The translations under genes and the position numbers were made by a program. This document shows positions 1,446-64,000 of a stretch of 64,000 nt of DNA, piece after piece (within the stretch, counting starts at the first letter, position 1; every line of letters begins with the position of its first letter). The notes below the pieces were generated by a model. That model did not search any database, was not told the origin of the DNA, and saw only the letters and a list, made by a program, of their open reading frames with translations. The stretch is from an uncultured Desulfobacteraceae bacterium (GTDB lineage: Bacteria > Desulfobacterota > DSM-4660 > Desulfatiglandales > HGW-15). The stretch is taken from assembly GCA_964520425.1 (NCBI GenBank), contig CAZFMX010000001.1, forward strand, positions 48,764 through 112,763, written 5' to 3'.

Positions 1446-2252
1446 ATGGCAATTATAACAATATCGAGGGGGTGTTACAGCAAGGGCAACGAAGTGGCTG
1501 AAAAGCTGGCTCAGAGGCTTGGATACGAGTGTATTTCGCGGGACGTAATTCTGGAGGCTTCCAGAGAATTTAATATTCCGGAGATTAAACTTGTCCGTGC
1601 GATCCATGATGCTCCGTCTATTTTGGATCGAATTGGCTATAGGAAAGAAAAATATATTGCCTTTATTCAGGCTGAAATCCTCAAGCACTTTCGGAAAGAT
1701 AATGTTGTCTATTCCGGTCTTGCAGGGCACTTTTTTGTGAACGATATTTCTCACGCACTTAAGGTGAGGATAATTGCCGACCTTAATGAACGAATTAAGA
1801 ACGAGGCACAAAGTGAGGGCATCTCCAGGAAAGAGGCTCTTCGTATTCTACAAAGTGATGATGAAGAGCGCCGGAAATGGAGTATTCACCTCTATGGAGT
1901 AGACACCCATAATCCCGAGCTTTACGATCTGTTTATCCATATCAAAAAGATCACGACTGATGATGCCGTCCACATTATCTCCGAAGCACTGGCGCTTGAT
2001 CTTTTTAAAACGAGCCATGAATCACAGCAACAAATGGAAGATCTGGCCCTTGCAGCCCAGGTAAAAGCTGCCATTGTGGATCTTGAGCCCGACGTCGATG
2101 TTGTCGCCTCTGAGGGTGAGGTCCAAATACATACAGCCGCACTGTTGACACGCGAGAGGGGTGTTGCTAATGAGATTGAAGTTGTCGCCAAATCTATTAA
2201 GGGCGTAACGAAAGTCACGGTGGGTGCGAAGCCTAAAAGCCATTTGGACTGA
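1446..2252 (+). CDS. cytidylate kinase-like family (PF13189-type) protein with C-terminal BON-like domain, paralog 1
   Basis: N-terminus MAIITISRGCYSKGNEVAEKLAQRLGYECISRD has the family-typical IxISR....G.E.A..LA..LG layout with a degenerate P-loop. The C-terminal about 70 aa (VDVVASEGEVQIHTAAL...IKGVTKVTV) looks BON-like. GGAGG at 1431-1435 precedes ATG 1446. Confidence 0.65.
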   Translation: MAIITISRGCYSKGNEVAEKLAQRLGYECISRDVILEASREFNIPEIKLVRAIHDAPSILDRIGYRKEKYIAFIQAEILKHFRKDNVVYSGLAGHFFVNDISHALKVRIIADLNERIKNEAQSEGISRKEALRILQSDDEERRKWSIHLYGVDTHNPELYDLFIHIKKITTDDAVHIISEALALDLFKTSHESQQQMEDLALAAQVKAAIVDLEPDVDVVASEGEVQIHTAALLTRERGVANEIEVVAKSIKGVTKVTVGAKPKSHLD

Positions 2253-2401
2253 AGACCATTACGGTATTATGGCCGCGCCTCCTGACGTCGATAATGTCCG
2301 CCTGTCCGCAACTTCCGCAGTGTACATATTTTTCGGTAAGACGATTTTTCGCATTCTATTCTATTTGTTTGGGTTCATTCTGAACCGGGGAGTCGCTTAA
2401 T

Positions 2402-3496
2402 ATGGAAGATGAACACTCGCAATCTGATGTTACCCGGAAATATACATCCAGCGGAGCGCATAGAAAGAGAGCCAAAAAGAAGGGCAGACTGCGGGCCCTC
2501 GTCCTCAGGGTTCCGGAACTAAGCATACTTATCATTTTGATTGCCTGCGGTTATATTGTGATAGCGATATTTTCAAAGGTTCAGGCTACGCAAACCCTCA
2601 CGCCATTTTCTATGTGGCTTATCATCACCGGATCCTTCTTTATCAGTATGGTCATAGCCATTATCGCAGTCATCGCCGGTATAGGCGGCGGAGTAATGTT
2701 TACGCCTATCATGCTGGGCTTTACCTCTATAGACAGCCTGGTGATAAGGGCTACTGGCCTAGTGGTCGCCATGTTCGGCGGTTTGATTTCATCCGGACCC
2801 TTTATGAAGACGAAACTGGCCAACTTGAGAGTGACTTTTTATTGCGCGGTTCCCATCACTATTGGAGCACTCACCGGCAGTATCAGTGCCATCTACTTAC
2901 ACCACGTTTTGGGGACCAGAGGTGACGGTGCAGTCCGCCTCTCCCTCGGGATTCTTATGCTTGTTATTGCCTTTTTTTTATTTACCGGTGGAGGCAAAAC
3001 CGAGTATCCGGAACCAAAGTTCATCGATCGATTTTCCATCAAGCTGGGACTAAAGGGCTCCTATTGGGAGGAATCACTTGGGCAGGTGGTCGAATACCAG
3101 ATGGTAAAAGCCCTGCTGGGGGGATTTCTTTTTATCCTTCTCGGCTTTATTGGCGGCTTCTTTGGTATGGGAGGAGGCGCATTTCTCACCGGGACACTAA
3201 ACCTTGTCATGTTGGCACCGGTTAAGGTTGCAGCGGCTTCCAGCGGCGTCTTGCTGGCCATAAGCGATGCTACCGCAATCTGGACATACATAAGATATGG
3301 AGCCCTCATTTCCATTCTTGCTGCTCCATGGATGTTGGGACACGTCGTCGGCGGAATTGTGGGAGCACACCTGTTAATCAGAATCAGGGCCGGTTTCGTG
3401 AGGAAAATTTTGATTATTATTCTTCTGGTTTCATCGGCGAAACTGATTGCGCGCGGGTTGGAGGCGATTTTAGGGATACATATACCCATTTTGTAG
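2402..3496 (+). CDS. TSUP (TauE/SafE, DUF81) family anion permease with N-terminal extension
   Basis: Polytopic membrane protein with the family-typical IAGIGGGVMFTPIMLGF and FGMGGGAFL glycine-rich motifs in its two halves. Confidence 0.75.
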   Translation: MEDEHSQSDVTRKYTSSGAHRKRAKKKGRLRALVLRVPELSILIILIACGYIVIAIFSKVQATQTLTPFSMWLIITGSFFISMVIAIIAVIAGIGGGVMFTPIMLGFTSIDSLVIRATGLVVAMFGGLISSGPFMKTKLANLRVTFYCAVPITIGALTGSISAIYLHHVLGTRGDGAVRLSLGILMLVIAFFLFTGGGKTEYPEPKFIDRFSIKLGLKGSYWEESLGQVVEYQMVKALLGGFLFILLGFIGGFFGMGGGAFLTGTLNLVMLAPVKVAAASSGVLLAISDATAIWTYIRYGALISILAAPWMLGHVVGGIVGAHLLIRIRAGFVRKILIIILLVSSAKLIARGLEAILGIHIPIL

Positions 3497-3505
3497 GAGC
3501 GTTTT

Positions 3506-3925
3506 ATGAAAAAAGGCCAATTGAAGCCACCTCTTGCCGGGGTAATATATGGCGGGATCGTTTATTGGGGGGTGTTAGTGGGCTCTCTCATTGTCATTAT
3601 TGGATCGGTATTGTCATTTTTGGGAGATAACTTTGTGCCGGCCTCTTACTGGTTGTCCACGGTATGGGAGGGTGAGTCTGTCTCTCAAATTTGGCAAGGC
3701 GCCACGGGTTCGCTCCCCATGGGGCACTGGTACCTTTCTCACCTGGCAACCGGTGATGGTTTGACTGCCATGGGAATTTCTTTGGCTGTTTTTTCAGTGG
3801 TACCAGCACTTTTTTTATCCTCAGCGGCTCTTTTCAGGGAGCGCGACTGGATATACGGCTCGCTTGCCTGTATTGCCGGAGTGATTGTGATGATAGGAGT
3901 CCTGGGCCTGTTTTCCGTAGGTTAA
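3506..3925 (+). CDS. small polytopic membrane protein (possibly DUF1634-like partner of TSUP permeases)
   Basis: 139 aa with about four hydrophobic segments, starting 10 nt after the TSUP stop. The DUF1634 assignment is from memory of gene neighbourhoods only. Confidence 0.5.
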   Translation: MKKGQLKPPLAGVIYGGIVYWGVLVGSLIVIIGSVLSFLGDNFVPASYWLSTVWEGESVSQIWQGATGSLPMGHWYLSHLATGDGLTAMGISLAVFSVVPALFLSSAALFRERDWIYGSLACIAGVIVMIGVLGLFSVG

Positions 3926-4019
3926 CTCCCATAACACCGGAAAGTCCGAGGGGGTGCGCGAACTGCAGGGCTGCCCAGAGGCTCCCACTTCTCCGGTAAT
4001 CTGGATAAAGGAGGTAGAT

Positions 4020-4817
4020 ATGTCTATCATTGCGATTGGCAGAGCTTCTTATAGCCATGGCAAGGAGATCGCTGAAAGGGTGGCGCGAGAGCTGAATTAT
4101 GATTGTATCTCTAAGGAAATTATCAGCCTTGCCTCCCAGGAATATGATATTCCGGAAAATTGGTTGAAGAAGGCTGTTGAAAACACCCCCACCATTCGTG
4201 ACCGATTCAGTTATGGAAAAAAGAAATACGTCGCTTACATCCGTGCTGCCCTGTTAGAGTATGCCGCCAAAGACAATCTGGTGTATCATGGGCTTGCAGG
4301 ACAATTTCTTCTTGAAGGCATTCCAAATATCCTCAAAGTCCTCATTTCCGCCACTACCGAGGAGCGATTAAACCTCATCATGCAAAGAGAAAATGTCTCA
4401 AAGACAGAGGCACTGAAAACCATTAAGAAGTTTGATAATGAACGGAGAAAGTGGACAATGTATTTCCATAACCAGGACCCCTGGGACTTGAGTTTATATG
4501 ATCTTGGTTTGGTTATTGGGAGACTGTCTATTGATGATGCCGTTGATAAAATCCTCGCTACGGTAACCTTGCCTTCTTTTCAAACCACTGCCGAGTCTCG
4601 CAGAATTCTTGCAAACGAAAGCCTGGCTGCCAGGGTAAAGTCGGATTTGATGAATTTTTACGCCGATGTTGAGGTCTCTGTAGAGGATCATACGGTGGTT
4701 GTACACATAAAGCGCAGTATGGCCCAGAAAGAAGCCCTTACGGACGATATCCGCGCAATCCTACAGGAAATACCGGGTGTAAAGGAGTTTCGGATTAATG
4801 TAATCCCCGTATATTAG
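4020..4817 (+). CDS. cytidylate kinase-like family (PF13189-type) protein with C-terminal BON-like domain, paralog 2
   Basis: MSIIAIGRASYSHGKEIAERVARELNYDCISKE... is collinear with the 1446..2252 product along its whole length, including NERRKW and the C-terminal VEVSVEDHTVVVHI...IPGVKEFRINV. AGGAGG at about 4008-4013 precedes ATG 4020. Confidence 0.65.
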   Translation: MSIIAIGRASYSHGKEIAERVARELNYDCISKEIISLASQEYDIPENWLKKAVENTPTIRDRFSYGKKKYVAYIRAALLEYAAKDNLVYHGLAGQFLLEGIPNILKVLISATTEERLNLIMQRENVSKTEALKTIKKFDNERRKWTMYFHNQDPWDLSLYDLGLVIGRLSIDDAVDKILATVTLPSFQTTAESRRILANESLAARVKSDLMNFYADVEVSVEDHTVVVHIKRSMAQKEALTDDIRAILQEIPGVKEFRINVIPVY

Positions 4818-4827
4818 AGAAAAAATT

Positions 4828-6237
4828 ATGAAGCTGGTACAGAAAATAACACTTGGCAATACCCTCGGCATTATCTCTATCATCCTGATAGGCGCTTTTT
4901 CCTATCATGAAATTGATCTAATTCTTGCCAAGTTACGTTTTGTTGAAATAGCCGACAGTCTTAACGCCTCTTTTCTAAGGATGAGGCTTTCAGAAAAGAA
5001 TTATTTTCTCTATAAAGATCGCTCCGAACTTTCATCGATAAAAAATGATCTGGAAGTAAGCCGTGTAACGGCTGAGAAACTGAGTCCAGATATAATCAAA
5101 GCCATCGGCGAGCAAAACTGGAATAAACTTGAATTATATCTCAACAAATATGAGCAAGAAATTGACGAGTTGGGAGAGAATAATAAAACGGCGCTGGATA
5201 TGCAAATGAAAGTCCGGGACTCTGGACGGAACTTGAGGCTCTTTTCGGAGAATATGATCAGCCTTGAGAGAAAAAGGATTAATGAAATTCTGTCTGCTTC
5301 AAAAAAGACATTACTGGTTTTCTCCTGCTTTATTATTTTTGTGGCCATAACGATCTCCTATCTTTTTTCTTCAAGAATGTTCAAGAATCTTCACCGCATA
5401 GGAAAAACGGCAAAAGCAATATCTGCCGGGAACTTCATGAAAATACAACGGAATATACCCGACAATGAGCTGGGCTCCGTCATGAAGGCAATCAATACTA
5501 TGTGTGAAGAACTTGAGACTCGCCATGAGCAACTTATTCAATCAAAGAAACTGGCATCTTTAGGCATACTCACCTCCGGCGTAGCACACGAGCTTGGCAA
5601 CCCGCTAAATAACATATCCATGGTTGCCGAGACTTACTTAGAGCTCTATGATCGTATTCCAAACGAAGATAAAATAGAATATATGAAAACGATCCAGGAG
5701 GAAAGTGAGAGAATCAGGAAGATTGTTCAGGATCTTCTGGACTTCTCAAGACCCAAAAAGGCTAATTTCAAAGTTGCGAATATTAATAGCGTCATAAAAA
5801 ATTCTCTCAAACTGGTCCAGGGTACGCTTGACATTTCAAGAATCAAGACTCAACTGGATCTTAAAGAAAACCTTCCTACCGTTTTTATCGATGAAGACAG
5901 GATCATGGAAGTAATGGTTAATTTACTAAACAATGCCATTCAGGCCATGCCTTCAGGGGGAACTTGTTTCATTCGTACGAAGCTCCCAAATAATCAAAAG
6001 AATATCATCATAGAAGTCAAAGATACCGGCGAAGGAATTCCCCAAGAGCTAATCTCTCATATCTTTGACCCTTTTTTCAGCACCAAGGAGGCGGAGGGAA
6101 CGGGATTGGGTCTGTCTATCAGTTACGGTATTGTAAGAACACATAAAGGAAAAATGGAAGTGAGGAGTAAAGTGGGAGTCGGAACAACTTTTATTATAGA
6201 ATTACCTATTCATAGGAAAAGGGGGGAACGGAGATGA
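4828..6237 (+). CDS. sensor histidine kinase (helical periplasmic sensor, HAMP, HisKA, HATPase_c)
   Basis: Two TM segments flank an about 150 aa helical domain. H-box SGVAHELGNPLNNI is present. N and G boxes are LLNNAIQA, DTGEGIP and GTGLGLSI. Confidence 0.9.
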   Translation: MKLVQKITLGNTLGIISIILIGAFSYHEIDLILAKLRFVEIADSLNASFLRMRLSEKNYFLYKDRSELSSIKNDLEVSRVTAEKLSPDIIKAIGEQNWNKLELYLNKYEQEIDELGENNKTALDMQMKVRDSGRNLRLFSENMISLERKRINEILSASKKTLLVFSCFIIFVAITISYLFSSRMFKNLHRIGKTAKAISAGNFMKIQRNIPDNELGSVMKAINTMCEELETRHEQLIQSKKLASLGILTSGVAHELGNPLNNISMVAETYLELYDRIPNEDKIEYMKTIQEESERIRKIVQDLLDFSRPKKANFKVANINSVIKNSLKLVQGTLDISRIKTQLDLKENLPTVFIDEDRIMEVMVNLLNNAIQAMPSGGTCFIRTKLPNNQKNIIIEVKDTGEGIPQELISHIFDPFFSTKEAEGTGLGLSISYGIVRTHKGKMEVRSKVGVGTTFIIELPIHRKRGERR

Positions 6238-6599
6238 ATGAATATAGAATCATGGTGATCGATGATGAAAACATTGTCGGCAAGATGATCAAGACTGTTT
6301 TTGAACCGGACGGATATACCGTGGAGACTTTTCTGGATGCAAAACCGGCGCTCGCAAGATTAAAGGAAGAAAAATTTGATGTCGTCATTACAGATCTGAA
6401 AATGAAGGATATTGACGGCATGGAGGTCCTGAGAATCATCAAAAAGGAATTACCGAAAGTCAAAGTGATAATGATTACCGCTTTTGCAAGTATGGATGCC
6501 TCCATCGAAGCATTTAGAGCGCATGTAGATGATTTTTTTCCAAAGCCGGTAAAAATATCAGAATTGAAAGCCTGTGTTAAGAAACTACTGACTGGTTGA
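6234..6599 (+). CDS. single-domain response regulator (CheY-like receiver)
   Basis: IMVIDDE acidic pocket, phospho-acceptor in VVITDLKMKDIDG, and the conserved K in FPKP. Its ATGA start overlaps the kinase stop, which suggests translational coupling. Confidence 0.9.
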   Translation: MNEYRIMVIDDENIVGKMIKTVFEPDGYTVETFLDAKPALARLKEEKFDVVITDLKMKDIDGMEVLRIIKKELPKVKVIMITAFASMDASIEAFRAHVDDFFPKPVKISELKACVKKLLTG

Positions 6600-7502: not shown

Positions 7503-7875
7503 TCTGTTAGTAAACCTTAATGGCATGCATTGCATGCCCGTTCATTTCTCGTTATTATCGGAACACCCACTTCCCTCCTTTCCCAGACACTGCGTTTGAC
7601 AAAAGGAGCATCGTTCCGTATGTCAAAAAAGAATGACCAGAGAATAGCCAACAACCTCAGATACTTATATCCGTTTGAATTCGGCAGTTTTCTGCCAAAT
7701 CTCAGATTGCAGAATAAGTGATACTCTACTGCCAATGCCTTGAATTCCTTCCAGTTTTTCCTTGAATTGAATGACACAATGTGGCACTTATATCAAATCG
7801 TGTTTATGTTAGGATGACTTTTAGGAAGGAAGGCTTCATTAGCGGCTTAAAGTTTTTCTTTTGTTCGGAGTTTCC

Positions 7876-9591
7876 ATGAAAATACTCCAATTGAAAAAGC
7901 TGTATGTACCTGCCTATTCCATTGTCGCCGTAGTGCTTCTGTTGTTCGTGCTTATCAGCGTGTCCACATACCGCAATCTGAATCGGGACAAAACGAGGGC
8001 CCTGGAATTCGTCCATCGCCAGGCGCTGTCGTTGATACGCACACTGGAAATCGGTGTAAAGGTTGGAATGAATCAGTCTTATAACAAAGAGGATCCCGAA
8101 CTTATAGGAAGACTGATTCATGAAGAGGGAAAGGATGAAGAGATTGACTATATCTATTTAACGGATGACCAAGGCAACATTCTTTATCATTCCGATCCCT
8201 CACAGGAAGGAAGACGTTCCGATCTTAACTCGCCATTAGAAAGCAAGGATCAAATTCAAAGCCGATTCAGAGAGTTTACAAATGGCTCCAGCGTGTATGA
8301 ATTGACCAAGTGTTTTTTACCTTTTAATAAATCTGCTCCTCAGTCAAAATGCGACCATACTCTTGTTCTAGCTATGAAGATGAACGCCTATGAAGAGGCG
8401 CGCCAAACTGATTTCCATCATGCCTTGATTATGGCTGGTATTGTTGTGACCTTGGGTTCTGCAGTACTCTTTTTTGTGTTCGTTATCCAGAACTATTATC
8501 TGGTGAGGGGGACACTTAAAGAGACTCAAGACTATACCAGGCAAGTCGTGGCCAACATGGCCAACGGTCTGCTGAGCATTAATCCTCAGGGAAGGGTCGT
8601 CTCTTACAATCTCTTGGCCTTGGAGTTGCTCGGTATTGAAGAATCTGAGGCCCGGGGAATGGACTTGAACAAGTATCTTGATTTCCAGATGAGCGGCATT
8701 GATGAAACCCTTACTCAATGTTACTCCGTTCTGGAGCGGGAGATCCATCATCAAAAAGGATCAGGTGAAGTGGTTCCCTTGGCATTAAGCGTATCACCGA
8801 TCTTGGATGAGAACGAGAAGTGTAAAGCGGCCGTGATCGTGCTTCGGGATTTGAGGGAAATCAAAAGATTGGAGGAAAAGGTCAAGCGTACGGAAAAACT
8901 TGCTGCGATCGGAAAACTCGCAGCCGGTGTAGCCCATGAGATTCGAAATCCCTTAGGTTCGGTCCGGGGTTTTGCACAGTTTTTGAGCCATTCCCTGAAA
9001 GACCATCCACAAGAACGAGAATACTCTGAGACCATGGTCAAAGAAGTGGATAGAATCGACAGGGTCGTCACAGACCTTCTCACCTTTGCCCGGCCTTTAG
9101 AAGCACGATTGGCTCCTGTGGATGTAAACGGATTGGTGGAGCACACATTACGATTGGTGCACGCAGATGCCCAGAATCGAGGGATCGAAATACGCAGAGC
9201 CATTTCATCTGGTCTAAGAGAGATTCTTTTGGATGATACACAGATGACACAAGCCCTCCTCAACCTTTTACTCAATGCCATACAAGCCATAGAGACCGAA
9301 GGCAACATCGAAGTGGGCGCGAACCTGGATGAACATGGCACACACCTCAATATCTGGGTCGAAAGCGATGGCCCCAGTATCCCACCTGGGCAAAGGGAGA
9401 GAATCTTCGATCCTTTTTTCACGACCCGAAAAAAAGGAACGGGACTGGGATTGGCCATTGTCCACAAGATCGCGGAAAATCATGGGGGTGAAATCTTGTT
9501 AGAGAGCCCTCTTTCTGATAAAGATCGTGGATGCCGCTTTACCATCGCCATCCCGATAGACGCAGATATCACGGATTCTCAAACATCTTAA
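7876..9591 (+). CDS. sensor histidine kinase, ZraS/AtoS-like (periplasmic domain, PAS, HisKA, HATPase_c)
   Basis: Two TM segments bracket an about 150 aa periplasmic region. A PAS-like segment follows. H-box AGVAHEIRNPLGSV; N and G boxes LLLNAIQA and GTGLGLAI. ATG 7876 is preferred over the TTG at 7861. Confidence 0.9.
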   Translation: MKILQLKKLYVPAYSIVAVVLLLFVLISVSTYRNLNRDKTRALEFVHRQALSLIRTLEIGVKVGMNQSYNKEDPELIGRLIHEEGKDEEIDYIYLTDDQGNILYHSDPSQEGRRSDLNSPLESKDQIQSRFREFTNGSSVYELTKCFLPFNKSAPQSKCDHTLVLAMKMNAYEEARQTDFHHALIMAGIVVTLGSAVLFFVFVIQNYYLVRGTLKETQDYTRQVVANMANGLLSINPQGRVVSYNLLALELLGIEESEARGMDLNKYLDFQMSGIDETLTQCYSVLEREIHHQKGSGEVVPLALSVSPILDENEKCKAAVIVLRDLREIKRLEEKVKRTEKLAAIGKLAAGVAHEIRNPLGSVRGFAQFLSHSLKDHPQEREYSETMVKEVDRIDRVVTDLLTFARPLEARLAPVDVNGLVEHTLRLVHADAQNRGIEIRRAISSGLREILLDDTQMTQALLNLLLNAIQAIETEGNIEVGANLDEHGTHLNIWVESDGPSIPPGQRERIFDPFFTTRKKGTGLGLAIVHKIAENHGGEILLESPLSDKDRGCRFTIAIPIDADITDSQTS

Positions 9592-9617
9592 ACCAGGAAA
9601 TGGACGCCGGAGAGCAA

Positions 9618-10973
9618 ATGAAAAAGAAGATTCTGGTCGTAGACGATGAACTCGCACACAGGCAAATGCTTGACGCCGTCCTCTCTAAAGAGGGGTATGA
9701 GGTCCGTAAGGCTGATGACGGGGAGTCGGCCATTGCCGCAGTGGAAGAGCAGTTTTATGACCTTATTCTTATGGATATCCGTATGAGCCGTGTTGGGGGC
9801 ATAGAGGCCCTGGAGAAAATCAAAGAAATCAGCCCGGGAATCCCTATTATTATCATGACCGCCTATGCATCCGTGAGTACGGCCATTGACGCCTTAAAGA
9901 AAGGAGCCTTCGATTATCTGACAAAGCCGCTCGATATTGAAGAGCTGAAGATTCTGGTCAACAAGGCCCTGCGGCACCATCAACTGGAGCAAGAGAATCT
10001 GATTCTCAAAGAACAATTGGGCAACCGATTTGATTTCTCAAACATCATCGGCAGAAGCGCTGCCATGCGGGAACTATTTGAGACTATAGCACTGGTAGCA
10101 CCGACAGATGCTACTGTGCTGATCACCGGTGGGAGCGGGACGGGAAAGGAACTTATTGCCAATGCCATCCATCAGAACAGCCCGCGGCGGGATCGGCCCT
10201 TTATCAAGGTAAACTGCGCAACCCTGCCTGAAACCCTTCTGGAAAGCGAACTTTTCGGTCACGAAAAAGGGGCCTTCACTGGCGCGGTTGCTCGAAAAAG
10301 GGGTCGTTTTCATTTAGCCCATACCGGTTCCATCTTCTTGGACGAAATCGCCGAGATGACAACGGTGACCCAAGCAAAGATCCTTCGCGTGCTTCAGGAA
10401 CGCCAGTTTGAATCCCTGGGGAGTTCGCATACCGTGGAGGTCGACACTCGGGTGATTGCGGCTACAAATAGAAACCTTGAAGAAGATATTCGTGAAGGTC
10501 GGTTTCGAGAGGACCTCTATTACCGACTGAATGTCGTCACCCTAGAAATTCCGCCACTTCATGAACGCCGAGAGGATATCCCCTTGCTGTCGGAGTTCTT
10601 TCGAAAACAATACGCGGAAAAGAACCAGCGCCTTATCAAGGGATTTAATCCGCGTGCCATGGACCTGCTCATGCGCTACGAATGGCCCGGTAATGTCCGG
10701 GAATTAGAGAATGTGGTGGAGCGAGCCGTGATTATGGCTCGGGGCGACATGATCACTCCTACAGAATTCCCGGATGTCTTGAAAGACCTGGATCCCGAAA
10801 TTTCAGAGATTGAGGTCGATTTAACACCCGGCAGATCTCTCAAAGAGGTTGAAAAAGAGATGATCATCAGGACTCTTGAGGAGACGGGTGGCAACCGTAC
10901 TCACGCGGCTGAAATCCTTGGCATTAGCCGCCGTACACTACAGCTTAAACTCAAAGACTATCAGATCAAATGA
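9618..10973 (+). CDS. sigma-54-dependent response regulator (NtrC/ZraR family bEBP)
   Basis: Receiver (ILVVDDE, LILMDIRM), AAA+ Walker A GGSGTGKE, the ESELFGHEKGAFTGA GAFTGA motif, and a C-terminal Fis-type HTH (NRTHAAEILGISRRTLQLKLK). Confidence 0.95.
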   Translation: MKKKILVVDDELAHRQMLDAVLSKEGYEVRKADDGESAIAAVEEQFYDLILMDIRMSRVGGIEALEKIKEISPGIPIIIMTAYASVSTAIDALKKGAFDYLTKPLDIEELKILVNKALRHHQLEQENLILKEQLGNRFDFSNIIGRSAAMRELFETIALVAPTDATVLITGGSGTGKELIANAIHQNSPRRDRPFIKVNCATLPETLLESELFGHEKGAFTGAVARKRGRFHLAHTGSIFLDEIAEMTTVTQAKILRVLQERQFESLGSSHTVEVDTRVIAATNRNLEEDIREGRFREDLYYRLNVVTLEIPPLHERREDIPLLSEFFRKQYAEKNQRLIKGFNPRAMDLLMRYEWPGNVRELENVVERAVIMARGDMITPTEFPDVLKDLDPEISEIEVDLTPGRSLKEVEKEMIIRTLEETGGNRTHAAEILGISRRTLQLKLKDYQIK

Positions 10974-11233: not shown

Positions 11234-11249
11234 TGGCACACGCCTTGCT
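11234..11249 (+). promoter_or_regulatory. sigma-54 (-24/-12) promoter
   Basis: TGGCACACGCCTTGCT matches TGGCAC-N5-TTGCW exactly in spacing and in the core GG/GC. It lies about 65 nt upstream of ATG 11314 and directly downstream of a sigma-54 activator gene. Confidence 0.8.
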
Positions 11250-11313
11250 TTGAAACATTCACAGAACACATTACCCGCTGTATATCAAGATTATTATTCA
11301 AGGGAGAAATTTG

Positions 11314-12576
11314 ATGAAAACAAGACGATTGGGCATGGGACAGTCTCATGTAAAAAAGGCAATGAAGCACGAGAAGATTACACGGGATTTTCATCTGAAA
11401 ACTATGTTGGGATTAATGCTGGTCACCCTATTGGTGGTTGGATGCAGTGGTGAGGGCGGTGGCCTCGTCGGTGGCGACGGGAGTTCTTCGGAAGCCTTAC
11501 TCCAGGGGATATTTATGGACAGTGCGGTCGAGGGGCTGGAGTATGAGACTGAAACCCAATTCGGTGTGACCGATCATGACGGGACTTTCATGTACATGGA
11601 AGGAGAAACCGTCATGTTTCACGTTGGAGATATCGTATTGGGAGAGGCTCATGCTCAATCCATGATGACACCGATCGATCTGGTAAATGGCGCCATGGAT
11701 GAAACCCATCCCATGGTCATCAACATGGCCCGGTTTATTCAGACCCTGGATGAGGACATGGATCCTGAAAACGGGATTACCATTACCGAAGAGATGAGGA
11801 CCGCAATGATCGGCCACATGATAGATTTCAATATGGACCCAGACTTATTTGAGTATGATCCTGATGTTCAGATGTTCATGCATACGCTCAACGGGATGCA
11901 TTCATCGGGTTCCATGAGAATGATGGTGTCCGCCGAAAACGCGAAGTGGCACCTCCATATTACGATAATGGGGATGATGGACTTTGTGACGGCTGGAAGG
12001 TTTTTGGACAGTTCAGTTGAGGGACTTGAATATCAGACTCAAATGCATTTTGGTGTGACGGATCAAAACGGTACCTTTATATACATGGAAGGAGAGACTG
12101 TCATGTTTCACGTCGGGGATATTGTATTGGGAGAGGCCCATGCTCAATCCATAATGACGCCGATCGATCTGGTGGATGGCGCCACGGATGAAACCCATCC
12201 CATGGTCATCAACATGGCCCGGTTCCTTCAGACCCTGGATGAGGACATGGATTCCGAAAACGGGATTACTATTACCGACGAAGTGAGGGCCGTGATGGTC
12301 GGTCACATGATTGATTTTGATATGGCCCCGGACCTTTTTGAGTATGATCCTGATGTTCAGCTGTTTTTGGATACGCTCAATGGAGTCTTTTCATCGGGTC
12401 CCATGAGAATGATGGTGTCCGCTGAAGATGCTCAGGATCACTTGCGTAAGACAATGGAGGAGATGATGTCGGACGATTCTGGGATGATGGACGATGAAAA
12501 CATGATGGATGGTAACAGCGGCATGACTACGAGTGATACCGATTCAATGGCGGGTGACATGAATCTGATGGGTTAA
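11314..12576 (+). CDS. Met-rich lipoprotein with internal tandem duplication and Met/Asp-rich tail (putative periplasmic Cu(I)/Ag(I)-binding protein)
   Basis: Lipobox LLVVGCSG. About 50 Met in about 420 aa by my count. Two about 163 aa repeats. C-terminal tail MMSDDSGMMDDENMMDGNSGM...MAGDMNLMG. AGGGAG RBS precedes ATG 11314. The N-region is unusually long, so a later Met start is possible. Confidence 0.7.
   Translation: MKTRRLGMGQSHVKKAMKHEKITRDFHLKTMLGLMLVTLLVVGCSGEGGGLVGGDGSSSEALLQGIFMDSAVEGLEYETETQFGVTDHDGTFMYMEGETVMFHVGDIVLGEAHAQSMMTPIDLVNGAMDETHPMVINMARFIQTLDEDMDPENGITITEEMRTAMIGHMIDFNMDPDLFEYDPDVQMFMHTLNGMHSSGSMRMMVSAENAKWHLHITIMGMMDFVTAGRFLDSSVEGLEYQTQMHFGVTDQNGTFIYMEGETVMFHVGDIVLGEAHAQSIMTPIDLVDGATDETHPMVINMARFLQTLDEDMDSENGITITDEVRAVMVGHMIDFDMAPDLFEYDPDVQLFLDTLNGVFSSGPMRMMVSAEDAQDHLRKTMEEMMSDDSGMMDDENMMDGNSGMTTSDTDSMAGDMNLMG
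11497..12474 (+). repeat. in-gene tandem duplication, 2 x 489 bp (163 aa)
   Basis: GGAC at 11517 aligns with GGAC at 12006, giving a period of 489 bp. Long near-identical blocks are present, for example ATGGAAGGAGA.ACCGTCATGTTTCACGT and GATGAAACCCATCCCATGGTCATCAACATGGCCCGGTT. Confidence 0.9.
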
Positions 12577-57185: not shown

Positions 57186-58295
57186 ATGGCCAAGATATTA
57201 AAGATACTCCTGGTTCTCGTGATCCTGGCTGCAACGGTCGTGGGCGGGTATGCCTGGGTTCAGAACCGGCAGCCGGACGATCGGGGGTTCACCTTTGTAG
57301 ATGTCGCCAGGGGCGACATCACCGAAAAAGCTGTGGCCGTGGGTCAGATCGAACCCCGCCAAAAGTTCCACATCAAGTCGAAGATATCTGGAATCGTCAG
57401 ACGGTGCCCGGTTGATGTGGGTGACCGGGTGAAAGCCGGGGATCCCATCATTGAAATCAGTCCGGACCCCACCCCTACGGAATTGTTGGAGGCTGAACGT
57501 CAGGTTGAAAAGGCCTTATCCGCGCACAATCGCGCCAAGGCGGACTGGGAACGCTCCCAAGACCTTGTGAAGCAGGGCGTTTTAACGAGAGACAGATTGG
57601 ATGCCGATCATGAGGCCTATGATCTAACCCGGATCGAGCTGGATCGTGCCCGGGACCATCTACAGCTCATCCAGGAGGGGCGGGTTGCCGGCCGCGGGGA
57701 AAAAATGGAGACCGTCATTCGCGCTCCTGCAGCAGGAATCCTCCTCGAGCGGCTTGTCGATCCCGGCGATCCGGTTGTTCCCCTCACGAGCTACCAGGCG
57801 GGTACCGAATTAGCTACCTTGGCTGATATGAGCGACCTGATCTTCAAGGGCACGGTGGATGAGATTGACGTGGGCAAGCTGGATATGGGTCTGCCCGTTC
57901 GTCTAAAAATCGGTGCCCTGCCTGATCAACCCATCACCGGCAAATTGACCCGCATTGCCCCGCAGGCGATTGAACGTGATAATGCCAAGCTCTTCGAGGT
58001 GGAGATCGAGTTGGACTCTTTCGAAGGCGTGCTGCTGCGTGCGGGTTATTCAGCCAATGCTGATGTGGTCATCCGGGAGAAGAAAAACATTCTTCTCATC
58101 CCCGAGCGCCTGATCATATTTGAGGATGATGGTGCCCAAACATTCGTAGAGCTGCCAGGTGAGATCCCGGAAGCGGAGCCCCGAAAAGTGACCGTTAAAA
58201 TCGGTCTCTCCGATGGCCTGAACACCGAAGTGATCTCAGGGGTCAAAGAAGGGGACAAACTGGTGCAGCGGCCTCCCAGAGAAATCGAGGGATAG
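57186..58295 (+). CDS. HlyD/MacA-family periplasmic adaptor
   Basis: N-terminal TM anchor, lipoyl/barrel-sandwich motifs (VDVGDRVKAGDPIIEI...IRAPAAGIL), and a coiled-coil hairpin. Confidence 0.85.
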   Translation: MAKILKILLVLVILAATVVGGYAWVQNRQPDDRGFTFVDVARGDITEKAVAVGQIEPRQKFHIKSKISGIVRRCPVDVGDRVKAGDPIIEISPDPTPTELLEAERQVEKALSAHNRAKADWERSQDLVKQGVLTRDRLDADHEAYDLTRIELDRARDHLQLIQEGRVAGRGEKMETVIRAPAAGILLERLVDPGDPVVPLTSYQAGTELATLADMSDLIFKGTVDEIDVGKLDMGLPVRLKIGALPDQPITGKLTRIAPQAIERDNAKLFEVEIELDSFEGVLLRAGYSANADVVIREKKNILLIPERLIIFEDDGAQTFVELPGEIPEAEPRKVTVKIGLSDGLNTEVISGVKEGDKLVQRPPREIEG

Positions 58296-58307
58296 GATTC
58301 ATCTGTC

Positions 58308-59531
58308 ATGATCAACACCATTCGCCAACTCGTACGTGACACACGCAGCCAGAAACTGCGCACTTTGCTGACTCTCTTTGGCATGATCTGGGGGACTACT
58401 GCGGTGAGTCTATTACTGGCGTTTGGCGATGGCTTACATAAGCAGACAGTAAAAAACAACAGGGGCATAGGTAATAATGTGATTATTGGCTGGCCCTCAC
58501 GAACTTCCATGCCCTTTGAAGGATTAGCCAAGGGCCGTTACATACTCATGGATGATGACGATATCCAGCTTCTCCGGCAGAAGGCTTATGGGCTTAAAGC
58601 CATTTCCGTGGAGTATCAGGCCGGGCTTAAACTCCAACGCGCTGCCAAAGTACTTACCGTGTCTGTATCAGGAGTGGAACCTGACTTCGGAGAAATACGC
58701 AATCTGATTCCAGCCGCAGGTGGTCGCTTCATCAATCACCTGGACCAGGAAAAGAGAAGGAGGGTGGCCTTTCTGGGAAATGAACTGGCTGGACAGATCT
58801 TTGGTGAGGAGTTTCCTATAGGGCAGTCTATTCAACTCAATGGATTCCCCTTTCTTGTCATAGGTGTGCTCAACGAAAAGATTCAGAATTCCAATTACGC
58901 AGGACCGGATAACGGGAGAGTTTTTATCCCTGCCTCCACGCTCAAAGTAATGACCGGACTGAGGTTTATCAACAACTTTGTCTTTTCGGCCAGTGATGTG
59001 ACCAAGACCGAAGCATTGATTAATGATGTGCGGCGGATCATGGCCCTTCAACACAGGTTTGATCCCATGGACGATCAAGCGATTGCTCTCTGGGATACCA
59101 CTGAGACATTTCGATTTCTCCATACCTTTATGCTTGCCTTCAAGATCTTCCTTGGAGTGGTCGGATGTTTGACCCTTGTTGTCGGGGGAATCGGTGTTTC
59201 CAATATCATGAATGTGGTGGTTGAAGAGAGGACCCGCGAAATCGGAATCAAAATGGCCCTGGGCGCGAAACCTCGCCTCATCCTTGGACAGTTTGTGTTT
59301 GAAACACTGGCCCTGACCATCGTGGGAGGAATCCTGGGTATATTGATTACCCTGGGAATCTGCGCGATTTTCCCTGCGTTCAATTTGACCGATTATGTGG
59401 GTGATCCTGCTATCTCTCCCGGCGCGGCTGCCGCCACCGCAGTGATGCTCGGTTTGATCGGTCTTGTTTCAGGTTATTTCCCCGCACGCACCGCTTCCAA
59501 CCTGGATCCGGTGGTGGCAATGAAGATGTGA
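58308..59531 (+). CDS. MacB-type (FtsX/MacB_PCD) ABC transporter permease 1
   Basis: Four-TM FtsX topology with a large periplasmic domain. N-terminus RSQKLRTLLTLFGMIWGT. C-terminus GYFPARTASNLDPVVAMK. Confidence 0.85.
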   Translation: MINTIRQLVRDTRSQKLRTLLTLFGMIWGTTAVSLLLAFGDGLHKQTVKNNRGIGNNVIIGWPSRTSMPFEGLAKGRYILMDDDDIQLLRQKAYGLKAISVEYQAGLKLQRAAKVLTVSVSGVEPDFGEIRNLIPAAGGRFINHLDQEKRRRVAFLGNELAGQIFGEEFPIGQSIQLNGFPFLVIGVLNEKIQNSNYAGPDNGRVFIPASTLKVMTGLRFINNFVFSASDVTKTEALINDVRRIMALQHRFDPMDDQAIALWDTTETFRFLHTFMLAFKIFLGVVGCLTLVVGGIGVSNIMNVVVEERTREIGIKMALGAKPRLILGQFVFETLALTIVGGILGILITLGICAIFPAFNLTDYVGDPAISPGAAAATAVMLGLIGLVSGYFPARTASNLDPVVAMKM

Positions 59532-59541
59532 GGTAAGAGAA

Positions 59542-60801
59542 ATGCGTAAACCGAGGCTAGGTCTGGTATTTCAACTCTTTCTGCGTGCGAGTCGTGTGCA
59601 GAAAAAGAGGGCGATCCTCACCGTGGCCTCCATCGCGTGGGGTTCACTCTCTCTGCTCTTGCTTCTGGCTTTTGGTGAAGGGCTCAAAATATCGTTAACC
59701 ACCGCCATGTACGGAATGGGCGAAGATCTGGCCATCTTTTGGCCCGGCACCACCAGCCTGATCTGGCAAGGACTGCCCGCGGGTCGGCCGATTCGGCCTC
59801 GCATAGAGGACATTGCCCTTCTAAGAGAGCGCGTTCCCAATCTGGAAGATGTGGCGGGTGAGATAAAAAGATGGGGTGTAGTCGTCAACCATGGTGAAAC
59901 GTCCACAACAGCTCAGGTCAAAGGTGTCACCCATGGTTTTGGTGAGATACGCAACCACATTCCTGCGCCTGGGGGGCGATTCCTCGATCCTCTGGACGAA
60001 CGACTGAGGCGTCGAGTGGCCTTTCTGGGAGACAAACTCACGGAGAAGCTTTTTTATGGAAAGGATCCAATAGGTAAGCAGATCCTTCTGGATAAAGTTC
60101 CCTATACGGTCATCGGGGTCATGATGCCCAAGATGATGATGGGGAACTATGGTGGAATGGACGAGGATCAAATCTCCATACCCATTACCACATTCAAGGC
60201 CCATTTCGGCCAGGACAGACTGAGTAATATCATAGTCAAACCGAACCAACCCCAGAGTATGGGATTTGTACTTGAAGAACTGCACAAAACCCTGGGGGCC
60301 AAATATGGATTTGATCCGAAGGACAAACGGGTATTCGGTATCTGGAATACGGTAGAGACATTCCAGGTCACCCGCGATATTTTGATGGGGATTCAGCTCT
60401 TTCTGGGTATTATTGGTGGTCTCACCCTGATAGTCGGCGGTGTGGGAGTGGCCAACATTATGTACGCGGTGGTCAAAGAACGCACCAAGGAGATCGGGGT
60501 TAAAATGGCACTGGGCGCGCGTAGGCGTTGGATCACAGGCCCTATTGTTCTCGAATCTTTGCTCTATTCTCTTTTGGGAGGAGCAGCCGGGCTGATCATG
60601 GCCGTGGTTGTTATTATTCTTCTGGAACAGTTGCCCACAGAAGGAAACGATGCCTTGACCATGATTGGCACTCCGACGCTATCTCTATCCATCGGTCTGG
60701 TGTCCGCCTCCATCCTGGGTTTTATCGGACTTATGGCAGGGTATTTTCCCGCGAGGCGTGCCGCGTCCATTAATCCGGCGGAGACGCTTCGTTACGAATG
60801 A
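59542..60801 (+). CDS. MacB-type (FtsX/MacB_PCD) ABC transporter permease 2
   Basis: Paralog of the previous gene (KKRAILTVASIAWGS ... GYFPARRAASINPAETLR). Confidence 0.85.
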   Translation: MRKPRLGLVFQLFLRASRVQKKRAILTVASIAWGSLSLLLLLAFGEGLKISLTTAMYGMGEDLAIFWPGTTSLIWQGLPAGRPIRPRIEDIALLRERVPNLEDVAGEIKRWGVVVNHGETSTTAQVKGVTHGFGEIRNHIPAPGGRFLDPLDERLRRRVAFLGDKLTEKLFYGKDPIGKQILLDKVPYTVIGVMMPKMMMGNYGGMDEDQISIPITTFKAHFGQDRLSNIIVKPNQPQSMGFVLEELHKTLGAKYGFDPKDKRVFGIWNTVETFQVTRDILMGIQLFLGIIGGLTLIVGGVGVANIMYAVVKERTKEIGVKMALGARRRWITGPIVLESLLYSLLGGAAGLIMAVVVIILLEQLPTEGNDALTMIGTPTLSLSIGLVSASILGFIGLMAGYFPARRAASINPAETLRYE

Positions 60802-60808
60802 GGGAGAT

Positions 60809-61543
60809 ATGTTTTTAGACGGGATTTTTAATTCAAAGAAGCATCAATCACCTGTTGAGAACGGTAGGGTGATCGACCTAAAAGGTCTGACCAAGGTCTA
60901 CGATACCGGCAAGATCAAGGTGGAGGCCCTCAAGGGTATTGACCTGGAGGTTCGGGATGGGGATATGGTGGCCATAACCGGTCCCTCCGGATCCGGCAAG
61001 AGCACCCTGATGAACCTCATCGGGTGTCTCGACACGCCCACATCAGGGAGCTACTTCCTACGGGGGGAATCGGTCTCAGGTTTGAGCCGGGAAGAGCTGG
61101 CAGGTATCCGAAACCGTCGGGTGGGCTTCATCTTCCAGAACTTTAACCTGCTTCCGCAGATTTCTGCTTTTGAAAATGTTGAGATGCCTCTTCTCTTCAG
61201 CGGCCTGCCCCGTCGTAAGCGTCGCGAAAGGGTCCATGAGCTTTTTGATCGGGTGGGTCTTGCTGATCGTATGGATCATAAGCCCACTGAACTCTCAGGG
61301 GGACAGATGCAGCGGGTGGCCACGGCCCGTGCCCTGGCCATGGACCCCGACATTATCCTGGCGGACGAGCCGACCGGCAACCTTGACACCAGTTCAGGAA
61401 GCGATATCATGGATCTCTTTCAGGAATTGTGGGAACAGGGTCGTACGGTCCTGGTGATCACACATGATCCGGCCTTGGCCCGTCGTGCCCCACGTCAGGT
61501 GGAGATCCGGGACGGGCTGATCACACGGGATAGTCGAAATTAA
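60809..61543 (+). CDS. ABC transporter ATP-binding protein (MacB/LolD-type NBD)
   Basis: Walker [10 protein letters not shown], signature [10 protein letters not shown], Walker [22 protein letters not shown] precedes ATG 60809. Confidence 0.92.
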
Positions 61544-61802
61544 CCCTAACGTTGCATAAAAAACATGACAAGGATTTGTCAAAAGCAAGGTGTACTTGAA
61601 TAAGAGCATCCACACGAATATGGGCGCAAAATGAGCGATAATCGATTGTCGATCAAATGAAAGATCACATTCGGCTTGGATTGTGATATAAAGAAAGCTG
61701 AAGAAGTCTGATCAAGGGAGTCATGACGAGTCGTGGCTGAAAGTGGAGAATTCGTAATCAGTGAATGATCGGATCAGTACGAGAGGAGGGGAGGAACCCA
61801 AA

Positions 61803-63170
61803 ATGAGATGTATGAGATGGATTGTTGTGTTCAGCATTTTCGTTTTTCTATTACTTGGAATGATGCGAAGTCCTCTATTTGCGCAAGAAGAGAAAGAGTT
61901 CTTCACATTGAGTGAGAGTATTGACACGGCCTTGGATAAGAATTGGTCGCTTAAGGCCAAGAAGGAAGGCGTCAGCCAAGCCACGGCCGTGAAAAACCAG
62001 GCTAGATCCGATTTTCTGCCGTCTCTGAACACCAGGTATGGCTACACTTACAGTAGAGATATAGACCAGAATTACGCCTATATCGAATTTTCCGGATTTC
62101 ACGATACGTTTCAGTGGGTAACAAGTGCGAGTGTTCCGGTGTTTACCGGGTTCGCCTCGATCAGTTCTTATGAGCTTGCGAAACTCGGGATTGACCGGGC
62201 CGAAGTGGAGGTCGCCCTGGAGAAATTGGATCTGGCGTTACGAGTAAAAGAGGCCTATTTCAATATCCTCATCGCGGACAAAGTCGTAGAGGTGGCGGAA
62301 AAGGATGTGGCATCCAGAAAATCCAACGCGGATGTGGCCCGTAACTTCTACGAGGTGGGCATGATTCCGGTGAATGATCTTTTGCAGGCCGAAGTGGAAT
62401 GGGCCGATGCCCAACAGACTCTGGTGAAAGTTCAGAACGGCGCACGGGTTACTCGGTCGACCTTTAATGTGATTTTGGCTAGGGAGGTCAACGCACCGGT
62501 AGATGTGGAAGATATTCTGGATTATAAACCGGAGATCGGGAAATATGAAGACTATCTGAAGCAGGCCCTGAAACAACGACCGGAGATAAAGACCCTTGAA
62601 ATTGCCATTCTCCAGGCGGATCAACAAATCCGATTGGTCAAGAGTGGATATTTCCCGACAGTTTCTCTCTCAGCCCAATACACGAAACTAGGGGATACTT
62701 TCGATGTTAGCGGGAGTGTTCTCAGATTTCCTATCGATAGTGAAGGAAACTATATGGAGTCAGAATATCACAAGTCCCATGATTTCAGGGCCGGGATCGA
62801 CCTTTCTTGGAAGTTGTCGGAGTTGGGATGGGGCAGGACCCGTTCCTCTGTAAGAGAGAAGGAAAGCCTCAAGAGAGAGCTGTTGGAGAACAAGCGCGCC
62901 GTAGAGGATTCCATAAACCTCGAGTTGAAGACGGCTTTAATGGATCTGGAAACCGCAGAGAAAAATATTCCCACCACAAGAAAGGCGGTTGAGCAGGGTG
63001 AGGAGAATCTGAGGGTCAGTGAGGAGAGGTATAAGGCCCAGGTGACGACTATTACGGAAGTACTAGATGCTCAGACCCGCCTGAGCCAGGCAAGAGTAAA
63101 CTATTTCAGGGCCTTCTATGACCATAACTTGGCTAAGGCACGCCTATTACGGGCCATCGGAGAATATTAA
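61803..63170 (+). CDS. TolC-family outer membrane efflux protein
   Basis: Signal peptide MRCMRWIVVFSIFVFLLLGMMRSPLFA and two OEP repeats. Last gene of the efflux operon. Confidence 0.85.
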   Translation: MRCMRWIVVFSIFVFLLLGMMRSPLFAQEEKEFFTLSESIDTALDKNWSLKAKKEGVSQATAVKNQARSDFLPSLNTRYGYTYSRDIDQNYAYIEFSGFHDTFQWVTSASVPVFTGFASISSYELAKLGIDRAEVEVALEKLDLALRVKEAYFNILIADKVVEVAEKDVASRKSNADVARNFYEVGMIPVNDLLQAEVEWADAQQTLVKVQNGARVTRSTFNVILAREVNAPVDVEDILDYKPEIGKYEDYLKQALKQRPEIKTLEIAILQADQQIRLVKSGYFPTVSLSAQYTKLGDTFDVSGSVLRFPIDSEGNYMESEYHKSHDFRAGIDLSWKLSELGWGRTRSSVREKESLKRELLENKRAVEDSINLELKTALMDLETAEKNIPTTRKAVEQGEENLRVSEERYKAQVTTITEVLDAQTRLSQARVNYFRAFYDHNLAKARLLRAIGEY

Positions 63171-63480: not shown

Positions 63481-64000
63481 ATGGCGGTTATAACCATATC
63501 AAGACAGTTCGGGGCCGGGGGTTGGGTTCTTGGCGAAAGACTGGCAAAAAGGCTCGGGTATCGTTATGTCAATGAGGGAATGATCCAGGAAGTGGCAAAG
63601 AAGGGGAAGATCTCATCAGGACGCGTGCGTGTATTTGAAAAATCTGGAACCAATAAATTGATGAAGTTCCTTGATAGACTGGTCTCTACAGATTCCGTGG
63701 ATCGTTTTGTCTCTGAAAGGCACGGGCATTTGGATGAAAAGGACTATGTGAAGATAGTTCGTGGCATATTCGAGGAGCTTCATGAAAAGGGGAATGCCAT
63801 CATCATAGGGAGGGGCGGTCAATATATTCTCAAGGGTTATTCCAACGTTCATCATGTTTTACTCGTAGCAGACGTGAAGAGTAGAATTCGTTTAATCATG
63901 GACACCCACAAACTAACGGAAGATAAGGCCAAGGCCATGATTAAACAGATGGAAAATCAGCGAGCCCGGGTCTTACGCCTATTTTCAGGACATGAATTCC
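63481..64000 (+). CDS. cytidylate kinase-like family (PF13189-type) protein, paralog 3, truncated by window end
   Basis: My translation gives MAVITISRQFGAGGWVLGERLAKRLGYRYVNEGMIQEVAKKG...IIIGRGGQYILKGYSNVHHVLLVADVKSRI... It stays open to the window edge. AGGAGG RBS at about 63471. Absent from the ORF track because it has no stop. Confidence 0.7.
   Translation, partial: MAVITISRQFGAGGWVLGERLAKRLGYRYVNEGMIQEVAKKGKISSGRVRVFEKSGTNKLMKFLDRLVSTDSVDRFVSERHGHLDEKDYVKIVRGIFEELHEKGNAIIIGRGGQYILKGYSNVHHVLLVADVKSRIRLIMDTHKLTEDKAKAMIKQMENQRARVLRLFSGHEF

Follow-up and report, generated by a model that had tools for sequence, protein, structure and literature searches.

The nearest described relatives of the proteins considered here are a 'putative kinase' of Clostridium symbiosum (3HDT) and a protein of Eubacterium ventriosum (3FDI), both structural genomics entries of about 200 amino acids with a single domain and no assigned function. 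Their family and fold are shared by the N-terminal 185 residues of two proteins encoded in a six-gene cluster (positions 1446-6599) of a 64,000-nucleotide stretch of DNA from an uncultured Desulfobacteraceae bacterium (GCA_964520425.1, contig CAZFMX010000001.1; hereafter the window, whose positions are used throughout). These two proteins, CKB1 and CKB2, are members of a family, named CKB here, in which a PF13189 domain of the nucleoside monophosphate (NMP) kinase fold is followed by a BON-like domain. Profile comparison of the CKB N-terminal domain with 3HDT and 3FDI gave E=7e-18 and 3e-15, and comparison with the CKB1 structural model by Foldseek gave E=3e-10 and 4e-9. The glycine-rich loop of 3HDT and 3FDI is likewise degenerate, but it reads REYGSGGR rather than SRGSYSKGKE, and the BON-like domain is an addition of CKB.

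Cytidine monophosphate (CMP) kinases (Cmk; EC 2.7.4.25; TIGR02173) have the NMP-kinase fold in common with CKB (structural matches at E=1e-7 to 1e-4), but are about 11-16% identical to it. CKB differs from Cmk in that its Walker lysine is not conserved, in having Glu in place of Ser/Thr, in the extra BON domain, and in a genomic context of permeases and two-component systems. The C-terminal domain of CKB shares its topology with OsmY and DolP (YraP), as judged by both profile and fold, and with BonA, as judged by fold. The BON domain of DolP binds anionic phospholipid (PMC7806268). OsmY, DolP and BonA are secreted or periplasmic, and Kbp is a BON-LysM protein, whereas CKB lacks a signal peptide and joins a single BON domain to a cytoplasmic kinase fold. 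Of the eight major BON architectures in a published listing, one combines PF13189 with BON, with no function given (Bryant et al. 2020, bioRxiv 10.1101/2020.08.10.244616, supplement), and literature searches, in which subscription journals were thinly covered, found no published function for PF13189+BON or CKB proteins. The pairing of a TSUP permease with a small membrane protein (DUF1634/AF_1016) is recognised, and such a pair was co-regulated in the proteome of Dissulfuribacter (PMC13490349). The known pairs have been described without PF13189/BON proteins or a dedicated kinase, and the TSUP permease of the window differs in having an extra N-terminal helix. With respect to both substrates and regulation, TSUP and SulP permeases rank with the most poorly understood transporters in sulfate reducers and other anaerobes (PMC5840216).

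The six genes of the cluster are all on the + strand and encode, in order, CKB1 (1446-2252; 268 amino acids, cytoplasmic), a TSUP/TauE-family permease (2402-3496; 364 amino acids), its partner, an AF_1016/DUF1634-like membrane protein (3506-3925; 139 amino acids), the CKB1 paralog CKB2 (4020-4817; 265 amino acids, with both domains), a membrane sensor histidine kinase (4828-6237; 469 amino acids) and a receiver-only, CheY-like response regulator (6234-6599; 121 amino acids). The list of open reading frames (ORFs) bears out the short gaps and the single ATGA overlap of the preliminary description: the spacings are 149, 9, 94 and 10 nucleotides, followed by the overlap at 6234-6237. A ribosome-binding site, AGGAGG, lies 8 nucleotides 5' of the CKB1 start. 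The six genes may constitute one signalling-and-transport module, with CKB as a membrane-peripheral pseudokinase effector through which the two-component system would control the adjacent permease; we give this reading a little less than an even chance of being correct. The observations of the preliminary description were confirmed as a whole with minor corrections, and its interpretation was supported in part; none of the three refuting conditions that it had named was borne out.

Conservation of the cluster extends well beyond this genome. About nine Desulfobacteraceae-type genomes, along with additional metagenome contigs, have the order CKB1-TSUP-AF_1016-CKB2-histidine kinase-receiver, the exact six-gene order occurring at 66-83% identity in loci L007-L009, L011-L014 and L085. 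The permease pair, TSUP plus the small membrane protein, is co-inherited with two CKB paralogs, a dedicated histidine kinase and a receiver-only regulator. Across the orthologous loci, the start codon of the TSUP gene and its ribosome-binding site are kept, as is the AGGAGG-type ribosome-binding site of CKB2, while the CKB1-TSUP and AF_1016-CKB2 spacers vary except at the ribosome-binding sites. Such non-conserved spacers, the sizes of the gaps after CKB1 and before CKB2 and the putative nature of the transcript count in favour of unrelated genes that happen to share a strand; this explanation is very improbable in view of the identical order in species-level genomes and metagenome contigs and of the neighbourhood enrichment and domain fusions described below. 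No sigma-54 promoter was found 5' of CKB1 (the window has 28 matches against 27.7 expected by chance), and scans for sigma-70 promoters and terminators gave nothing over shuffled expectation that would define the transcript ends.

The CKB family is widespread. A word-indexed search returned at least 5815 clusters, the best 120 of which are all of about 268 amino acids, mostly from Desulfobacterota metagenomes, and labelled 'cytidylate kinase'. When 1.84 billion representatives were searched exhaustively with a profile, 3301 clusters (50% identity) reached E<=1e-10, and 662 of these reached E<=1e-30. At least 561 loci are present in species-representative genomes of Desulfobacterota, Nitrospirota (Thermodesulfovibrionales), Planctomycetota, Dehalococcoidia and others. 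The genes surrounding CKB were surveyed in 80 loci by clustering the neighbours without prior labels and comparing ORFs within three genes of CKB (near) with those at least five genes away in the same loci (far). TSUP ORFs numbered 21 near and 0 far (Fisher p=3e-7), SulP ORFs 5 and 0, DctM ORFs 3 and 0, and histidine kinase ORFs 28 and 8 (Fisher p=6e-4). An anion permease of the TSUP, SulP-STAS or TRAP type is near CKB in 28 of the 80 loci, two-component genes are near it in 35, and 19 loci have two or more CKB genes. The CKB family is genomically tied to two-component systems and to three unrelated families of secondary anion permeases (TSUP, SulP-STAS and TRAP).

Besides the arrangement of the window, several other contexts recur. 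A second TSUP subfamily lies ahead of CKB, separated from it either by the genes of a histidine kinase and then an NtrC-type regulator, or by that of a PPDK-like protein; SulP-STAS is followed by a fusion of CKB to a receiver (CKB::REC), CKB, a histidine kinase and a receiver; TRAP genes (TAtT-DctP-DctQ-DctM) are followed by CKB, a receiver and LPG_synthase_TM; and CKB occurs in divergent pairs of CKB with CKB-histidine kinase. As an example of the TRAP context, at L003:5981-12418, L015 and L017 a CKB relative (62% identical to CKB1) lies between a TAtT-DctPQM TRAP system and a 168-amino-acid receiver, with a membrane protein of the LPG_synthase_TM family next. At L031, L035, L055 and L076 (for example, L055:5376-7979), as well as at L088:1-988, proteins of about 870-905 amino acids with PPDK_N and PEP-utilizer mobile domains adjoin CKB and TSUP or SulP; these proteins have no recognised C-terminal catalytic domain, and universal stress proteins (Usp) are sometimes encoded alongside.

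The placement of CKB relative to the two-component system is indicated by its fusions. A sister group of proteins of about 406-418 amino acids has the CKB architecture followed by a C-terminal receiver, and PF13189 and PF00072 were found together in 120 of 120 relatives of a CKB::REC query, among the matches listed. These proteins, annotated just as 'response regulator' or 'CheY-like/cytidylate kinase', retain in their receivers the acidic pocket (DD), the phospho-acceptor Asp, the Thr and the Lys. Of 74 metagenome loci, 67 have an ORF upstream of CKB::REC, and in 61 of these a co-oriented SulP gene is directly upstream; a kinase gene is directly downstream in 40 of 45. Three genome contexts have the order SulP-STAS, CKB::REC and dCache kinase, followed by more receivers. 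Fusion is found in two separate subgroups, the divergent one beside SulP and a canonical one represented by P0379. The CKB part of P0379 shares 50% identity with CKB1 and 44% with CKB2, its receiver is 39% identical to that of the window, and a second CKB gene follows it. The closest known counterparts are single-domain (CheY-like) response regulators and response regulators whose outputs are enzymatic or protein-binding. In CKB::REC the CKB part, which has no characterised activity, is N-terminal to the receiver. To our knowledge, CKB is not among the output domains described for response regulators.

In Planctomycetota and Desulfobacterota (L087-L089 and L090-L169; for example, L087:4747-11447), the SulP arrangement comprises genes for a TetR-like protein, SulP-STAS, CKB::REC, a dCache histidine kinase, a receiver of about 120 amino acids, a protein of about 220 amino acids that has an H-box and no Pfam match, and a receiver of about 142 amino acids; this module looks like a branched phosphorelay around the SulP permease. 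In Desulfohalobiaceae bacterium Ax17, genes of ATP sulfurylase and adenosine 5'-phosphosulfate reductase (sat-aprBA; L087:12883-15212) are located 4.7 kb downstream of SulP-CKB::REC. A general link to dissimilatory sulfate reduction was rejected, as sat-aprBA is nearby in this one genome and in none of about 160 other loci.

The histidine kinase of the window has HisKA (residues 247-309; 5566-5754; 53.9 bits) and HATPase_c (residues 355-461; 5890-6210; 96.9 bits) domains with the H-box AHELGNPL. Hydropathy places a first transmembrane segment at about residues 10-30, then a region of about 130 amino acids that is probably periplasmic, and a second transmembrane segment at residues 162-180 (5311-5367). 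The kinase had been called a HAMP histidine kinase, of which the kinase part is secure; the HAMP-like stretch (residues 180-230; 5365-5517), directly after the second transmembrane segment, covers model positions 2-52 of 53 but is a weak match (17.3 bits against a cut-off of 25, E=0.006). Its sensor region (residues 1-235) has homologues in the kinases encoded at other TSUP/CKB loci (E=1e-17 to 1e-119), and this homology spans both TSUP contexts, with E down to 1e-29 beyond the orthologs; thus, the module is accompanied by a kinase lineage of its own. The protein encoded next to the kinase proved to be CheY-like as first described (PF00072 E=4.9e-28; Response_reg 98 bits), its gene overlapping the kinase stop codon by ATGA, and its translation contains D10, D11, D54, T82 and K104. 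Since the receiver has no DNA-binding domain and all of its catalytic residues are present, its output must be protein-protein interaction.

Information might also flow in a different direction, with CKB as an input, a co-sensor that would inform the kinase about conditions in the cytoplasm or about how the permease is faring (ligand load, flux or membrane state), and the receiver would then signal elsewhere. CKB2 is translationally coupled to the kinase across a 10-nucleotide gap, the sensor family of the kinase is co-inherited with TSUP/CKB genes, and CKB is also found after pairs of histidine kinase and NtrC-type regulator with transcriptional output; co-sensing by a transporter and a kinase is established for DctA-DcuS and BceAB-BceS. 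However, the kinase has a periplasmic region of its own, and the fusions join CKB covalently to a receiver whose phospho-acceptor site is intact, which places CKB downstream of phosphorylation. A co-sensor role is considered unlikely, though it deserves to be kept in mind.

Both kinase-like proteins have the PF13189-type N-terminus attributed to them earlier: CKB1 scored 150.6 bits (E=6.5e-44; model positions 1-175 of 176) and CKB2 132.4 bits (E=2.6e-38) against a gathering threshold of 28. They are 38% identical in a gap-free alignment, and CKB2 represents its own subfamily of 592 clusters. The AlphaFold2 model of CKB1 (predicted local distance difference test (pLDDT) 85.7, predicted template-modelling score 0.83) consists of a domain of NMP-kinase type and then a helix-strand-strand-helix-strand domain, and Foldseek searches with the whole model matched 3hdt and 3fdi best, with CMP, shikimate and adenylate kinases after these. 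A degenerate P-loop-like segment, RGCYSKGNE (residues 8-16; 1467-1493), separates strand 1 from helix 1 in the model and corresponds to RASYSHGKE in CKB2 (4041-4067). The Walker A motif GxxxxGK[ST] is satisfied neither by CKB1 (GCYSKGNE) nor by CKB2 (ASYSHGKE, which fits [AG]xxxxGK). The loop had been described as degenerate and lacking GxxxxGK, and this is true of both window proteins but not of the family consensus, SRGSYSKGKE, which has GxxxxGK and then E; the N of CKB1 is an outlier. Across 100 relatives, the Walker lysine position is occupied by K, R, Q, N, E or M and the next residue is E, D, Q, K or A, with Ser/Thr always replaced, and the P-loop-like loop is missing altogether in the subgroup of SulP-type fusions. 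Conserved in the CKB family are R8, R116, D139, R142, W145 and Y160-D161.

Because the Walker lysine position varies and Ser/Thr is replaced, CKB1 and CKB2 are, to judge by their sequences, not CMP kinases, and the archaeal CMP-kinase model TIGR02173 scored 38 and 36.7 bits on them against a cut-off of 102.1. Considering the degeneracy of the loop, the low TIGR02173 score and the Arg, Asp and Trp residues that remain conserved, the kinase fold is regarded as non-catalytic (a 'pseudokinase') and probably ligand-binding. That CKB might instead be an active small-molecule or nucleotide kinase, acting on the transported compound or a linked nucleotide in metabolic trapping or activation, is suggested by the NMP-kinase fold with CMP and shikimate kinases among its structural matches, by the retention of GxxxxGK in most family members, and by the recurrence of PPDK-like phosphotransferases nearby. 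Such activity is improbable, considering that the Walker lysine is N in CKB1 and R, Q, E or M elsewhere, that the Mg2+-binding Ser/Thr is replaced throughout, that the loop has been lost in the SulP-type fusions, that TIGR02173 scores are far under the cut-off, and that a BON domain and receiver fusions are atypical of metabolic kinases.

The C-terminal module of CKB1 (residues 191-261; 2016-2228) and CKB2 (about 4590-4802), for which a BON-like identity had been proposed, misses the cut-off when single sequences are compared with Pfam BON (PF04972; 16.4 bits, E=0.012, and 15 bits, E=0.031, against a gathering score of 27), but the identity is upheld by the family profile and the predicted fold. 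A profile of 29 C-terminal domains matched, in the PDB, both BON repeats of OsmY at E=1.8e-7 and DolP at E=1.8e-4, the next match having E=0.07, and one relative, P0096, has a precomputed match to PF04972. The helix-strand-strand-helix-strand topology was assigned by DSSP in both models, and the model of the domain has moderate confidence (pLDDT 79); Foldseek searches with it returned OsmY (E=1.9e-4, TM-score 0.62), DolP and BonA as the top three, and also Kbp. Hydropathy indicated no hydrophobic segments in CKB1, CKB2 or the receiver.

Given its BON-like domain, CKB might have a general role at membranes or under stress, as OsmY and DolP do, and stabilise or assemble membrane proteins; its adjacency to permeases would then reflect co-expression under stress and not regulation. 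Many loci have no permease or two-component system, Usp and HtrA-type genes are near CKB in some loci, and one member found by the profile search, P0396 (554 amino acids), has a tandem pair of universal stress protein domains C-terminal to the BON-like one. This explanation leaves unaccounted for both the near-obligate order SulP-CKB::REC-histidine kinase (61/67) and the conservation of the kinase-fold domain, in which Arg, Asp and Trp residues are invariant, and its probability is judged to be low. Another profile-search match, P0504 (511 amino acids), is extended considerably at the C-terminus, with hydrophobic segments at the end of the extension.

The permease of the window was correctly described as of TauE/SafE type with an extra N-terminal helix. 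It matches PF01925 (TC 2.A.102) over model positions 2-237 of 237 (E=2.3e-28; 99.9 bits against a cut-off of 32.6) through a TauE domain at residues 79-348 (2636-3445), and hydropathy gives multiple hydrophobic segments in two blocks in addition to the extra one at residues 40-58 (2519-2575). It is distant from the named members of TSUP (best NCBIfam match at E=1e-5), and no solved structure was found for a relative of it. The 139-amino-acid protein, to which four transmembrane segments had been assigned, has three clear hydrophobic segments by simple hydropathy. It has a precomputed match to PF27327 (AF_1016) and a sub-threshold match to DUF1634 (22 bits against a cut-off of 27.5, E=1.8e-4), and an AF_1016-like gene is directly 3' of the TSUP gene in 10 loci. 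As to substrate, no sulfur-metabolism genes are conserved near CKB loci, and a search of the entire window for Rfam families gave zero matches, so that no riboswitch or RNA leader provides a clue.

In the mechanism proposed here, the BON domain would tether CKB to the permease or to the inner surface of the membrane; membrane association is suggested by the BON-like domain and by the hydrophobic C-terminal tail of P0504. The kinase would sense a periplasmic signal and phosphorylate the receiver, and the phosphorylated receiver would act on CKB1 and CKB2, in trans in the window and in cis in the fusions, so as to switch the activity of the adjacent permease post-translationally. The remnant of an Arg/Gly-rich phosphate site (R8, G9, G14, R116, D139, R142) may also bind a cytoplasmic anionic ligand, perhaps a nucleotide or else the very anion that is transported, and the outcome would be feedback control. 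The suggestion of the preliminary description that a regulatory pair gates or senses an anion exporter is favoured in its regulatory part by the enrichment of CKB beside three permease families and kinases and by the receiver fusions with SulP upstream.

Several findings weigh against control of a permease by CKB. No recognisable anion permease is present within three genes of CKB in 52 of the 80 surveyed loci, and no two-component gene is nearby in 45; thus, the CKB family cannot be an obligate permease subunit. The surveyed loci are phylogenetically non-independent and the calling of ORFs was crude. The NtrC-type regulator found in one context means that control there may be purely transcriptional. 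The BON domains characterised to date are mostly periplasmic. Finally, the receiver of the window was rejected as an ortholog of the receivers of SulP loci, being about 30% identical to all receiver classes, and with no clear ortholog there, the argument from fusion is valid at the domain level only.

A functional analogy may be drawn to the PII-type regulators of the GlnK-AmtB and SbtB-SbtA systems, which are encoded beside the permease that they plug. Like these, CKB is a soluble protein with a ligand-binding type of fold, encoded beside a secondary transporter and proposed to exert post-translational control in response to a covalent or ligand signal. PII proteins differ in their trimeric ferredoxin-like fold, as against NMP-kinase plus BON, and the input proposed for CKB is phosphorylation of a receiver. 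By extension, PF13189+BON proteins may be a new effector class, membrane-peripheral pseudokinases controlled by fused or separate receivers, which would bind and gate anion permeases of at least three unrelated families; this generalisation is tentative and is thought rather more likely to fail than to hold. If it is true, CKB represents a new output domain of response regulators and a new principle by which anaerobes regulate anion transport post-translationally, functionally similar to PII yet unrelated in fold. The soluble CKB family, widespread and mis-named 'cytidylate kinase', offers a handle on the switching of anion transport through two-component signalling, CKB::REC is a large and uncharacterised response regulator architecture, and the corrected annotation is one that could mislead metabolic reconstructions.

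Elsewhere in the window, a MacAB/TolC-like efflux operon (57186-63170) consists of genes for HlyD, two MacB-like permeases, an ATPase-sized ORF and OEP. A third PF13189 gene (63481-64000, + strand; 132.4 bits, E=2.6e-38), cut by the end of the window, is located right after this operon as had been reported. The argument from 'three copies in 64 kb' is weak although the third gene is real, for its product is a distant, generic member of PF13189, 27% identical to CKB1, with the generic 'GAGG' loop.

The only perfect sigma-54 consensus of the window (TGGCACACGCCTTGCT; 11234-11249, + strand) is outside the CKB locus, about 60 nucleotides upstream of a 421-amino-acid ORF (11311-12576) that has no Pfam match. 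Directly upstream of this site and ORF is a second two-component system (7861-10973), in which a PAS histidine kinase is paired with an NtrC-type sigma-54 activator and which is not conserved beside the CKB operon in orthologous loci. Upstream of the operon, on the + strand, is an ORF of the GDT1/UPF0016 family of divalent cation/proton antiporters (389-805). The gene called on the matching contig encodes 92 amino acids with one repeat, which suggests a half-size member of the family that would require dimerisation.

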